Of a stretch of 64,000 nucleotides of DNA, positions 262-58,566 are shown piece by piece; the stretch's first letter is position 1, and each line of letters begins with the position of its first letter. The notes beneath the pieces are model-generated. The model did no database searches, was not told the DNA's origin, and saw nothing but the letters and a program-made list of their open reading frames with translations. This DNA is from Octopus vulgaris (lineage: Eukaryota). The DNA lies in contig OX597835.1 in the NCBI GenBank assembly GCA_951406725.2, positions 12,586,001 through 12,650,000 of the forward strand, written 5' to 3'. The translations under genes were made by a program, and so were the position numbers.

Positions 262-470
262 AAGTTAATCCAAACAAGAAAACACAAAAAAAAACACAGC
301 AACGCGAGGACGTGGAACAAATAAAGTATTATTGGACGCTCAGGAAAGAAGGGAAGAAGGAGGGTTTAACGTTTCGAGCGGAGCTCTTCGTCAGAAACAA
401 AGGAGAAGGAAAGATCCCGAGAAGGGAAGACAGAGGAAAAAAATTGCTGGCGGTGCTCACGAGGTCTCAC
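262..470 (-). mobile_element. Short non-coding element carrying a hammerhead ribozyme (Penelope-like terminus or retrozyme-like), between (TA)n and (CA)n tracts
   Basis: Unique ~210-bp segment bounded by microsatellites; contains the hammerhead at 364-398 on the minus strand, followed by a pyrimidine-rich tail running into (TA)n. Confidence 0.6.
364..398 (-). ncRNA. Minimal type I hammerhead ribozyme
   Basis: Minus strand reads GTTT-CTGACGA-A-GAGC-TCC-GCTC-GAAA-CG-TT-AAAC. Stem I GTTT/AAAC, core CUGACGA plus an extra A, stem II GAGC/GCTC, GAAA, palindromic ACGT stem III (dimer type), putative GUU cleavage. Confidence 0.7.
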
Positions 471-642
471 ACACACACACACACACACACACATACATAT
501 ATATATATAATACGCTTTTCACTGACCAACTACTATCAAGTTAATTACGAACTGAGATTATTTTCATTTCTTTTCATTTCAGTCCAACTACATATCTATT
601 TGGGTATCTATTAATATTTCTCTCTATCTGTACATCTGGTGA

Positions 643-1175
643 TATCTATCTATCTATCTATCTATCTATCTATCTATCTATCTATCTATCTATCTATCTA
701 TCTATCTATCTATCTATCTATCTATCTATCTATCTATCTATCTATCTATCTATCTATCTATCTATCTGTCTGTCTGTCTATCTATCTATCTATCTATCTA
801 TCTATCTATCTATCTATCTATCTATCTATCTATCTATCTATCTATCTATCTATCTATCTATCTATCTATCTATCTATCTATCTGTCTGTCTGTCTGTCTG
901 TCTGTCTGTCTGTCTGTCTGTCTGTCTGTCTATCTATCTATCTATCTATCTATCTATCTATCTATCTATCTATCTATCTATCTATCTATCTATCTATCTA
1001 TCTATCTATCTATCTATCTATCTGTCTGTCTGTCTGTCTGTCTGTCTGTCTGTTTGTCTGTCTGCCCATCTATCTATCTATCTATCTATCTATCTATCTA
1101 TCTATCTATCTATCTATCTATCTATCTATCTATCTATCTATTTGTCTGTCTGTCTCCCTGTCTGTCTGTCTGTCT
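643..1175. repeat. (TATC)n/(TGTC)n compound microsatellite
   Basis: Directly visible; source of the SIYL-repeat ORF. Confidence 0.98.
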
Positions 1176-1566
1176 AACAAGCTAGCTATCATATCTACAT
1201 TCTCTGCTGTATCGCTCTACTCTCGTAATACCGATAACTATTTAAACCTAATAACAAAACTTAAAAAAACAACAACATTAAAATAAATAATGGCAGTGCC
1301 CCAGCTTGGTCACAGCCTTTGGTTTGAAACATGTAAGAGCTAAAAGTGCATCATCTACAGCTACTTGCTAAATATATTTTCACTTTGATTTAATTATCTA
1401 TCGATACATCTTTTAATGCATAAATGCATAAATTTATAAATCTTCATGGCATTGTTTCACAATGTTAAACTTTCCGACTTCAATTCGAACACAGAAAGCA
1501 GAATAATATAGACCTTCTCCCTTTCTCTCTCTTCTGTGTGTCTCTTTCTCGCTCTCTCTCTCTATT

Positions 1567-1774
1567 ATATATATATATATATATATATATATATATATAT
1601 ATATATATATATATATATATATATATTATTATATATATATATATATATATATATGTATATATATATATATATATATATATATATATATATATATATATAT
1701 ATATATATATATATATATATATATATATATATATATATATATATATATATATATATATATATATATATATATAT
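1567..1774. repeat. (TA)n microsatellite
   Basis: Directly visible. Confidence 0.98.
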
Positions 1775-1780
1775 GCTCTT

Positions 1781-54466: not shown

Positions 54467-54792
54467 ATATGTATGTATGTATGTATGTATGTAATGTATG
54501 TATGTATGTAATGTATGTATGTAATGTATGTATGTAATGTAATGTATGTATGTAATGTATGTATGTATGTATGTATGTATGTATGTATGTAGCTCGATAT
54601 CTTTCATTTTGCCTTTATTCATTCGCGCTATATAACAGTTAATACTGTTGTGCCTTTGGTCTACAAACTAAAACAATCACACACACACACAATTCTAATG
54701 TATTTTAATTTTTATTTTTATATGAAATTTCTTTTTTTCCTCAAAATGTTTTCTCCCATTCTTTATTTTCTTACTTCCTTCTACAATACACG

Positions 54793-55800
54793 CATGCGTA
54801 GCTGTGTGATTAAGAAGCTTTCTTTATAACCACAGGGTTTCGGGTTCAGTTTCATTGTGCAGCACCTTGGGCAATTGCTTTCTACTACAGCCCTGGGCCA
54901 AGCCAAACCTGAGAGTTTCGTAGACGAAAACTGAAAGAAGCCTGTCATATATATATATATATATATATATATATAAATAATAAAATACAAAATAGGACAA
55001 GAACGCAAAACATCCGGACAACTAAGTGATACAAAAAGGGACAACAAAAAAACCAGACAGACGATGTCAAAAAATAAAAAAAAAACACATTCGAAGCCTT
55101 TTATCTTCAGTCAAAAACAGGATCATCCTCGCAATTTCGGCTGATTAATTTTTTTTGGTATTGTCTATCTGGATGTTTTGTTGTCCCTTTTTTGTATCAC
55201 CTAGTTGTCCGGATGCTTTATGTTCTTGTCCCATTTTGTATTTTATATATACATATATATATATATATATATATATATAGCGGCGTACGTACACTTTGTT
55301 CTCTTATATATAAATATGCATGCATGTATGTATGTATGTTTGTATGTATGTATGTATGTATGTATGTATGTATGTATGTATGTATATATGTATGTCCGTA
55401 TGTATTTATGTATGTATGTATGTATGTATGTATGTATGTGTGTATGTGTGCATGCGTGCGTTCTTTGTGACATTGTGTGTGGTCTTTGTGCCTGTGATTG
55501 TTCCCCCACCACCACCACCGCTTGACAACTGGTGTTGGTTTATTTACGTCCGCATAACTAATCAGTTCGGCAAAGGACACCGGTAGAAGCAGTACCAGAC
55601 TTTAAAAAAAAACAAAAAAAAAACAGACAAACAAAAAACAAAACAAAACAAAACCCCCCAAAAGTGCTTGGGTCGATTTATTCGACAACAAATCCTTCAA
55701 AGGTGGCGCCCCGGCATGGCAGCAGTCCATTGACAAAGACAATATAAAAAATAAAAGACAATATAAAAAATAAAAGACAATATAAAAAATAAAGGAGATA
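54793..55800 (+). mobile_element. Old SINE family A split into 5' (54793-54946) and 3' (~55480-55800) halves by nested insertions
   Basis: 5' half ends CTGAAAGAAGCCTGTC; 3' half begins ...CCGCTTGACAACTGGTGTTGG; the interval holds a fold-back element and (TATG)n. Confidence 0.75.
54980..55246. mobile_element. Fold-back element (~95-bp imperfect inverted arms) in (TA)n
   Basis: AAAATACAAAATAGGACAAGAAC...CATCCGGACAACTA.GTGATACAAAAAGGGACAAC versus its reverse complement at ~55150-55246. Confidence 0.85.
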
Positions 55801-56532
55801 AAAGACATGATTGAATTTTGTCCGAAAATAGCCGATCCTTATTCCTCTGCGAGTATCGTTGCCTCCCCCCGCCGCCACTGGTTATTCCTTCGTTACTATA
55901 TTAGCACGCCGTCATTCGCTTCTATTTTAACACCTTCGTCTTTCTGTCTATCTTCCTCTAATTACTACATGTTTCAACCTTGACACTTTCGGCTCCCAAC
56001 AACGTTAGCTCATCCATTTACTCCATTTTACTTTCCGGCTACTTTAAAACTTCTCCTTTCTCTCCTATCCTATAATTGTTTAGCTGTCTCTTTCTTCCAT
56101 TTGTCATTCCTTTAATTAGCTTGTTTTGATAGGAGCGATCTCTACTAATTTAAGAACTTTATTTTCTTAAGATTTTCTTAATTCCAAACCTGACATTTCC
56201 TTCGTCCATGTTAAGACGTTTAACTGCCGTCCATTTTACATTGCCTGAGCCTTCGTTTTATAATCGGAATTCTTCTCTCCTTGTTTAATAACTTGCTAAT
56301 TATAGTTTTATCATTAAGTTTGACAAGGTCATTTTGACAGAAATTCTATTGCGGTTCGTCATAAAACAAAACTTTTCTCTCTATTTAAATACTTTGAGTC
56401 CATTATATTTTAGCTAGTAGCATATCTACTCTCAGAACTCCCATTTGGCTGTATATGTATATATATATATATATATATAAATATATATATATATATATAT
56501 ATACATACGTACATATATATGTATAATGTATA

Positions 56533-56792
56533 GGGTAGCGAATATTTTTAGAAATTTCACTACTAGTGGCCTAGCATCTATAAAAAGTCAATAGACAACA
56601 TATTCTCAATATAAATAGTGTACATGCAAACACAAGAGAAACTACATTTAACAGGTTATTTTACAAGCTAGAAGAAGCAGTCAAAACGACCAAAACGACA
56701 TTTAAGAGCAATTTCGAAGGGAATGAAAAATAAAAAACCTTTTACCATGTTATTATTTTATGGCCATACCTAGGTTTCGAATTACCTGTTAT
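56533..56792 (-). mobile_element. Truncated Penelope-like terminus with the 3' half of a hammerhead
   Basis: Minus strand TTC-GAAA-CCTAGG-TA-TGGCC at 56778-56767; its end GGGTAGCGAATATT..AGAAAT (plus strand) recurs at 50418. Confidence 0.55.
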
Positions 56793-58566
56793 CTCTCTCT
56801 CTCTCTCTCTCTCTCTCTCTCTCTATATATATATATATATATATATATATATATATATATATATATATATGCATACATATATATATATATATATATATAT
56901 ATACATACATATATATATATATATATATATTCAAATTAATACTCATACACACACACACACACACACACACACAAATATATGGTGTAAAATATACAAAATA
57001 CGTAAATTAATGTTATCTGCATTATGATGTATAAAACGAAAGCAATGCATTTTTCTCTCTTGTTAGCGTTTATAAGATGCCTGTGCATAACATTCACATG
57101 TTTTTTCCTGCAGCCATCATCTTACGACAATTACAGCAAAACATTAACAAAAGCAATCTCACTTGCCTTCGAGGGCCTACGAAGGTCAAGGTCATAGCCC
57201 CTTTATTTAAGCCAAATCGATAGAAATAAAATTACAGATTGCCAAAGCAAAATTACATATTGCCTGTTTCGGCTTTCTTAACCCAGCAATCTTTCTTGCT
57301 CAAAGAGGAGAAATATCCTGGAGTGTTGGATAATTTACAAGCCGTGTTGTATTATCTTTAGTTTTGTTCTGTCAGCGAAGATTCTTGTTTGTGAAAGAAA
57401 GAAAGGAAAAGGTTCAATAATATTTAATTTTTCCTTTCCATAGTATCACGTGATAAATCACACGGTATTTATCCCACAAACTCAAATACATAGAGAGCAA
57501 CATGTCAGCACTTACTTCGTCTAAGATCTTTAAATTAAGCGTACTTCATTTAGTTTTGGCACGGCAGCATTTAAATGTAGTCTTCAAATTGTTTTGTGGT
57601 CCTTAAATGTATCGTAGGTTTTTTTATTCAACGAAGGGGTTTAACGTTGGTTCCGAATGATACATTTTAAAAGGGTGTGTTGCAACTGCATCTAGTAGTT
57701 ATTGTTTTTGTTGATACAAATGTTTTTTTTTTTATGTAGGAATGTGCAAACCATATTATGTTACCCGCTCCCCACGGCATAAAACATATGCCACAGTTCG
57801 TATTAGTTTCATCGTTCAACTTTGTTTTATTTGCGAATATGAATATGGTTTCAGAGGACTTTAGTCATGCTTCCACATACATATCATACAGCAACACACA
57901 CACACACACACACACACACGTGGTGACGGAAGTTGTCCGTGTGTATTTACTTTGTATTCCGAAACCATCCAACAAACGCGCACAGTCATATATATTTTTA
58001 TTCACATCCTCCTAGGAAAGTCTTGTATTACATATTAAAAAATGTCGGCATATACATATGCATACATAGATGGATAGATAGATACATACATACATACTTG
58101 TATATAAATATACATATATATATATGCATACATATATACATACATACATATATATAATGTATATATATATATATATATATATATATATATATATATATAT
58201 ATATATATATATATATATATATATACCGGAGTAAACACATGAATGTGAAACAAGGTGGAAAAAAGAGTACTCAAATACCAGTGGTTGAGTAATATGCTTT
58301 ATTTAAAGCAGCAGAAAATTCAACAAAGTATATATATATATATATATATATATATATATATGTATGTAAATATATATATATGTATATATATATATATGTA
58401 TATATGTGTATATACATATGTATATATATATGTATATATATATGTATATATGCATATATATTATATATATATATGTATTTATATGTATATATATGTATTT
58501 CTATATATATACATATATTCACACACATAAATAAATATATACATATACATATATACATGCATATAT

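Follow-up and report, generated by a model that had tools for sequence, protein, structure and literature searches.

Hammerhead repeats in a 64-kb stretch of the octopus genome: probable ends of Penelope-like elements and retrozyme-like units

The stretch of DNA described here, 64 kb of contig OX597835.1 of Octopus vulgaris (hereafter "the window"), is rich in microsatellites, has a guanine-cytosine (GC) content of 35%, and comes from a genome of 2.8 Gb in 227 contigs. It houses a series of short repeats, E1 to E6 (Table 1), whose families carry type I hammerhead ribozyme motifs. The window very probably holds the truncated 3′ ends of three families of Penelope-like elements (PLEs), along with pieces of two hammerhead repeats that have no open reading frame (ORF) and that Penelope enzymes are likely to have copied in trans. 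What the DNA itself displays is a set of hammerhead folds belonging to repeat families, ORFs upstream of E1 to E3, head-to-tail units in E4 and E5, paired 3′ ends, inverted arms, and adjacency to (TA)n tracts.

All of the folds claimed in the original prediction, and its half motif, were found in place by descriptor or by sequence check. They have the CUGANGA and GAAA core, NUH, and stems I to III; E5 has them in its family, with only half of the motif in the window. A generic type I descriptor gives five matches in the window, clearly above dinucleotide-shuffled sequence, where the mean is 0.015–0.03 and the maximum one (three sets of 200 shuffles). Because this descriptor was composed once the window motifs had already been seen, it was rerun unchanged on an unbiased sample of sixty 10-kb stretches placed at round coordinates on 19 contigs (599,800 bases, or ~600 kb), and returned eight matches, compared with none in the reversed sequence. 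The elements are indeed mutually unrelated, BLAST giving nothing above 17-nt chance matches, and AATAAA does lie downstream of E2 and E3. A few details need amending: a mirror core with broken stem I is present in E3 as well (7914, minus strand), the E4 window copy carries two stem I substitutions relative to its family, and the cluster does not reach 58330 as a run of ribozymes, since E6 has no hammerhead; it comes from the 3′ part of a sixth family, other copies of which have one. The E1 hammerhead has an additional A behind A9. In minimum free energy (MFE) folding, the E2 homodimer forms a dimeric hammerhead paired through ACATATGT. An Rfam scan gave no hammerhead among the 150 matches listed of 490, which are dominated by microRNA models matching microsatellites; microsatellites also dominate the output of a repeat finder.

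Table 1. Hammerhead-bearing repeats and related fragments in the window (positions within the 64 kb)
Feature	Position	Strand	Remarks
E1, 5′-truncated 3′ end of Neptune/Nematis-type PLE family	262-467	minus	flanked by (TA)n 207-261 and by (CA)n/(TA)n from 468
E1 minimal type I hammerhead (predicted)	364-398	minus	stems I and II 4 bp each, stem III ACGT; cut after 368
E2 main arm, Hydra-type PLE 3′ end (by motifs)	2511-2828	minus	hammerhead core 2798, ~150-nt tail; ends at (TA)n 2437-2510
E2 perfect mirror hammerhead	core at 2798	minus	
E2 inverted arm	2829-3017	plus	hammerhead 2878-2963; short 3′ end, then (TA)n 3018-3063
E2 inverted-arm hammerhead (predicted)	2878-2963	plus	stem I 6, stem II 12, stem III ACATATGT; cut after 2957
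E3 head-to-head pair, second Hydra-type PLE 3′ end (by motifs)	7859-8051	plus	intact hammerhead 7913-7969, ~60-nt tail, (TA)n on both sides
E3 hammerhead (predicted)	7913-7969	plus	stem I 9, stem II 3, stem III 4-bp non-palindromic; cut after 7960
E4 sense arm of 540-565-nt ORF-less unit	28777-29476	minus	decayed hammerhead 28879-28823; 3′ part missing
E4 hammerhead, decayed	28879-28823	minus	stem III ACGCGT; predicted cut after 28829
E4 inverted 5′ arm	29476-29666	plus	ends at (TA)n 29667-29743
Second E4-family fragment	35114-35384		flanked by (TA)n runs; contains an inversion junction but no hammerhead
E5-family 3′ fragment	50411-50466	minus	ends at (TA)n
E5, 5′-truncated copy of 450-470-nt ORF-less unit	56526-56783	minus	keeps 3′ half hammerhead 56778-56767
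E5 half motif	56778-56767	minus	3′ half of family hammerhead
E6, 3′ fragment of another hammerhead family	58226-58329	minus	truncated just 3′ of ribozyme; (TA)n on both sides

The 27-nt core of E1 has 2,513 exact matches in the genome, and longer members of the family reach an ORF. In one of these (L260) the ORF has DKG, CX4CxxC, and a GIY-YIG-like domain, in agreement with the Neptune/Nematis pattern of DKG and a CX2-5CxxC finger ahead of a C-terminal GIY-YIG; it also gives a weak RVT_1 match. The window copy is 78% identical to the 3′ end of L260 over 186 nt. Since the longer copies lead into this ORF, an alternative view of E1 as a short interspersed nuclear element (SINE) with a fixed 5′ end was abandoned. 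An inverted partner is present at just 1 of 30 loci, and the DNA between the E1 pairs at L196-L199 contains no PLE ORF belonging to E1. The 3′ region of the E1 parent is CA-rich. The 5′ truncations cluster at a short hairpin (window 462-467; L166-L195) with first letters resembling (TA)n/(TG)n, possibly a stop of the reverse transcriptase (RT) or a microhomology join.

E2 (2511-3017 as a whole) is a 5′-truncated, head-to-head insertion from a family with 2,910 candidates in the genome, the best 40 of which are 97–98% identical. Longer copies (L157, L160, L163, L165) have an upstream ORF with the motifs DKT, RWF, and GLYRDD, a C-terminal GIY-YIG-like endonuclease, CxxC, and CxH. Its closest database homologue (P0001) is 43% identical and has the CxCX5C linker, and none of the 19 homologues bears an informative name. 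The family has two 3′ ends, separated by ~150 nt. The one that includes the tail runs on, in L163, into the start of an ORF, a PLE tail signature for which PMC11167929 offers an explanation. An inverted arm lies within 1.5 kb in 14 of 29 other copies. Elsewhere in the window, a broken Hydra-type endonuclease remnant (49747-50349, minus strand, ~40% to E2) lies beside an E5 fragment and (TA)n, and downstream of it no hammerhead was found.

E3 is represented in the genome by 1,594 exact copies of a 28-mer (pattern search); the first 30 loci yield 21 distinct insertions, of which 18 have the head-to-head inverted arm. Longer loci (L151, L153, L155) carry an ORF with the CxCX5C linker, CxxC, and CxH, and its RT is 43% identical to that of E2 over 136 aa. 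In both E2 and E3 a single ORF joins an RT to a C-terminal GIY-YIG-like endonuclease, as is characteristic of Hydra elements, with CxxC and CxH around a conserved E and N; this is read from motifs in broken copies, and the DKT/RWK comparison covers E2 alone (DKT, RWF), the E3 N-terminus lying outside the recovered sequence. Judging from these motifs and from a by-eye fit to the printed alignments of PMC8557442, E2 and E3 appear to be Hydra-type PLEs. Between endonuclease and hammerhead, the E3 parent holds 2.2–2.9 kb of microsatellite-like degenerate TA/TG repeat (L151, L153, L155), 57–59% of it in alternating purine-pyrimidine runs and 88–97% identical among the three loci. This PLE may spread microsatellite-like DNA.

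E4 and E5 are of another kind. Followed upstream, their long copies enter the 3′ part of a preceding unit, with periods of 540–565 nt in E4 and 450–470 nt in E5. These ORF-less, head-to-tail units with a type I hammerhead have a GC content of 29–32%, within the retrozyme limit of <45%, and the longest ATG ORF is 47 aa in one E4 unit and 51 aa in one E5 unit. With the reference copies counted, the distinct copies that are longer than one unit number 17 of 57 in E5 and 3 of 35 in E4, while an abutting inverted arm is found in 17/57 and 9/35, respectively. Their 3′ ends fall at two preferred sites, ~85 nt apart in E5 and ~100 nt in E4. Both families are comparatively old (82–93% identity; 2,413 E5 candidates at 85–92%), and other E5 copies have a complete hammerhead. 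A single two-unit locus was met (L200), in which both cores are mutated. Folded as circles, seven of eight units score z values of -3.1 to -6.7, to which the hammerhead stems contribute. Contigs of four presumed-RNA runs cover the E5 unit in short pieces, from which strand, ends, and circles are unreadable. On sequence grounds, E4 and E5 look like non-LTR (long terminal repeat) retrozymes with PLE insertion marks added. The E4 window copy is itself interrupted by an unrelated element end with its own AATAAA (29084-29410, plus strand). As for E6, its other copies show the full hammerhead fold as well as inverted arms.

Most hammerheads of the window were said to abut (TA)n; the E4 hammerhead arm does not, as only the inverted arm of that copy adjoins (TA)n (~29667). 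A strict test asked for (TA)4+ no farther than 14 nt from the anchored 3′ end, for which the background is 3,054/51,000 (6%). The tract was present in 22/28 cases for E1 (2 of 30 loci had no anchor), 29/29 for E2 including the window copy (1 of 30 without anchor), and 27/30 arms for E3, a range of 79–100%. Over a wider interval, counted without a matched background, (TA)n accompanies 46/57 E5 and 30/35 E4 copies.

Strict folds in the unbiased sample amount to 13 per Mb (bootstrap 5–23), or ~37,000 genome-wide by extrapolation from those ~600 kb; permitting U4C and A6U cores gives 18 matches and ~84,000. U4C cores are frequent, at six of the 18. A very high copy number had been predicted from the window, and the genome-wide number is high, but the window overstates the density: it contains 78 folds per Mb, ~6 times the sample average, and 3,172 (TA)n runs per Mb vs. 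1,879 in the sample. Searched through the whole genome, the minimal core pattern with ACGT matches 9,859 times, as against 339 in reversed sequence. Stem I, left unspecified in this pattern, reaches at least 3 bp in 22 of the first 30 loci, and stem II in 24 (random expectation, 6%). Two-sided changes occur at 6 of 8 stem pairs, a value reached by 0/500 shuffles; this covariation test covers the ACGT class alone, retains all 31 rows including one chance match and two mis-anchored ones, and uses a shuffle that ignores relatedness. The multi-copy families and the stem covariation whose absence would have refuted the original prediction are both present, the covariation in the ACGT class, and every window element belongs to a genome-wide family. 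Other points of the prediction also find support: an origin from PLEs, a large number of families, a preference for (TA)n, truncated ends in inverted orientation, and a high copy number. Its wording of a radiation of short retroelements is not borne out, as E1 to E3 are truncated ends of long PLE families and only E4 and E5 are short and ORF-less. The flanks of L214, L065, L267, L033, L152, L366, L370, and others hold at least ten more hammerhead families with differing palindromic stems III.

Could the folds simply be chance matches within AT-rich repetitive DNA? The motif is short, and one entry of the generic list (L239) is stemless, yet the shuffled and reversed controls, the stem pairing, and the two-sided changes have already refuted this idea, which is practically untenable. 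It is also unlikely that the elements bring or make their (TA)n rather than choosing it as a target. The 2.2–2.9-kb repeat region of the E3 parent and the CA-rich 3′ region of the E1 parent speak for such a carried microsatellite. However, the parental repeat tracts sit 5′ of the hammerhead, while the (TA)n that was counted lies past the fixed 3′ ends, flanks inverted pairs on both sides, and varies in length; in addition, the L163 tail continues to the start of an ORF rather than to (TA)n.

For E4 and E5, two other origins come into play. They might be old pseudo-LTR (pLTR) remnants of autonomous PLEs whose ORF was not reached, and no retrozymes at all. The two ends and inverted arms are as in E2 and E3, the families are old, and the screen for PLE ORFs covered a 1.5-kb flank with the proteins of three PLE families. 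Nevertheless, that screen found a sense-upstream PLE ORF at 0/105 loci (~94 distinct; four of the 105 have unrelated protein matches, downstream or antisense), upstream extension enters the previous unit after 450–470 or 540–565 nt, and the unit ORFs are no longer than 47 and 51 aa, so that a pLTR origin is quite improbable. E4 and E5 might also have been copied, without any circular stage, from linear tandem transcripts made by a small number of master dimers; this is a real possibility, though it falls short of an even chance. The two-unit locus L200 exists, and uncut RNA is the dominant substrate in vitro (PMC11167929). Against this, tandem pairs are absent from all 57 exact-motif matches (0/42 and 0/15), yet 17/57 E5 copies exceed one unit, and most units fold well as circles.

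How, then, would ribozyme-bearing RNAs from PLEs and retrozyme-like units have come to lie in the window? From what PMC11167929 and PMC8557442 report of related elements, a GIY-YIG endonuclease would nick (TA)n DNA, and the RT would start at either of two internal RNA sites, giving the short end or the tail end. It would mostly terminate early, leaving a 5′ truncation, and a second cDNA made from the opposite strand would add the head-to-head arm. Because copies span the cleavage site (in the unbiased sample, 7/8 homologues of E1 have their start 5′ of the ribozyme), the template would mainly be uncut or re-ligated RNA. It is mostly as dimers, joined at the palindromic stem III, that the hammerheads would cut, and tandem transcripts of E4 and E5 may be cut to monomers and then circularised, by analogy with the retrozymes of mussel, coral, and axolotl. 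The head-to-head copies of the window would fold as long hairpins, each pairing with its own antisense arm, and are probably dead as ribozymes.

Several observations weigh against PLE ends and trans-copied units as an account of the window. In MFE folding, E1, E3, and E4 do not take the hammerhead form, neither as monomers nor as dimers. The E2/E3 clade assignment is made by motif; Pfam gave no match to the E2 or E3 ORF, nor did a PDB search; and E2 has a long Asn-rich stretch in the linker where CxCX5C is expected. The RVT_1 match of the E1 RT falls under the curated Pfam cut-off. As the window E1 subfamily was met solely as ~215-nt copies (30/30 closest), it may be a non-autonomous derivative. 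The proposed linking of families to Penelope ORFs succeeded as far as upstream ORFs of E1 to E3, but an intact full-length ORF was not found for any family. E5 passes the strict (TA)n test in only 12/28 cases, one unit (L086) folds no better as a circle than its shuffles (z -0.7), and the longest E4/E5 array met is two units. No partner PLE was found for E4 and E5, which have no sequence link to the E1, E2, E3, or E6 ends.

A further hammerhead family, related to the ACGT class, lies outside the window (e.g., L373-L384 at 1501) and is the largest counted, with 16,072 exact 27-mers. It has U at core position 6 (A6U) in 98 of the first 100 27-mer copies listed. Searched by its 3′ flank alone, with queries derived from U6 copies, it yields 47 copies, 43 of them with an alignable motif and 41 of these with U6. 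Among the 43 motifs, N7 is split 18/8/6/11 and position 17 30/8/2/3, with the other core positions 91–100% fixed; stems are retained and copies end at (TA)n. Because only N7 and position 17 vary, the fold may be kept under selection. A natural A6C hammerhead with low activity is described in PMC3088659, where A6U is unreported, and no natural A6U hammerhead was found in the literature searched, which included few subscription papers and only some supplements.

A more ambitious claim can be offered tentatively, since it is possible but rather doubtful as a whole. E4 and E5 would be the first cephalopod retrozymes, their fixed starts, copies of more than one unit, and inverted second arms recording a PLE RT circling a small circular RNA, and hence direct genomic evidence of a PLE-retrozyme partnership; at the same time, the A6U fold would be under selection, with an altered catalytic core, either as a working natural variant or as one kept for folding or dimerisation instead of cutting.

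The remainder of the window offers no host exons recognisable by eye among its ORFs. It does contain two minisatellites with similar CATAC/TACTAC-rich wording, at 20973-22418 (period 71, 20 copies, 96%) and 25114-25604 (period 97, five copies), and an abundant SINE-like repeat in both orientations at 90–96% (1800-2170, 28212-28600, 51844-52062, 58580-58890, 59312-59518).

The findings agree with published PLE and retrozyme biology. The original prediction knew of no such elements in cephalopods, but one Octopus Hydra PLE was listed in 2021: Hydra-1_Obim of Octopus bimaculoides, with hammerhead and (TA)n preference, is found in the supplement of PMC8557442. Two things may be new: the A6U family and the presence, in a cephalopod, of retrozyme-like units that bear PLE insertion marks. 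No cephalopod retrozyme was found in the literature searched (few subscription papers, and neither Repbase, Dfam, nor some supplements); ribozymes go unmentioned in the main text of a 2026 Octopus vulgaris repeat annotation, and cephalopods in the main texts of PMC7229834 and of Li, Clavereau, and Pollet (2026; 10.64898/2026.07.22.740005). For annotation, tens of thousands of short genome repeats can be named as PLE ends or retrozyme-like units. If E4 and E5 do make circles, they would support PLE-driven mobilisation of retrozymes, a link argued so far from phylogeny and co-occurrence. Likewise, the A6U family is a natural test of why PLEs keep hammerheads, cleavage being dispensable for insertion in vitro.

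Hydra PLEs, with their hammerheads and (TA)n targets, were defined by Craig et al. (2021; PMC8557442). E2 and E3 share with this clade of C-terminal endonuclease-positive (EN+) PLEs, Hydra-1_Obim included, the C-terminal endonuclease, CxxC, and CxH, as well as a hammerhead close to the 3′ end, insertion at (TA)n, a tail, and an inverted 5′-truncated copy, and E2 also the DKT and RW motifs. They are families separate from Hydra-1_Obim, with hammerheads unlike the one listed; they are longer than the usual <3 kb, with tails of ~60 (E3) and ~150 nt (E2) vs. 30–40; and E2 differs from the clade in having no CxCX5C linker (PMC8557442). Many minimal-hammerhead families per genome were described in other animals, with ~9,000 copies in Xenopus, by Cervera and de la Pena (2014; PMC4209133), whose main text and two supplement files do not include Octopus; the A6U core was not met in the parts of that work covered here. 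The metazoan PLE minimal hammerheads reported there have the same extra nucleotide after A9 and palindromic 15.2-16.2, and similarly come as many families of mostly solo motifs, opposite-strand pairs, and thousands of copies.

Animal non-LTR retrozymes are known in mussel, coral, and axolotl (Cervera and de la Pena, 2020, PMC7229834; Li, Clavereau, and Pollet, 2026, 10.64898/2026.07.22.740005). Like E4 and E5, they are ORF-less, low-GC, head-to-tail units with type I hammerheads, co-occurring with PLEs and dispersed as monomers and dimers. The 450–565 nt of the E4/E5 units are at or above the retrozyme range of 150–450 bp (PMC7229834; 10.64898/2026.07.22.740005), and long arrays were not met. 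Unlike known retrozymes, E4 and E5, known here from genomic sequence alone, show clear inverted arms of the PLE type, and their 3′ ends are double. The mechanism of Poseidon-Ac, a PLE of a different clade characterised by biochemistry (Frangieh et al., 2024; PMC11167929), resembles the one inferred here from sequence, with its two RT start sites defining the tail, its AT-rich targets, and its copies across the cut site.

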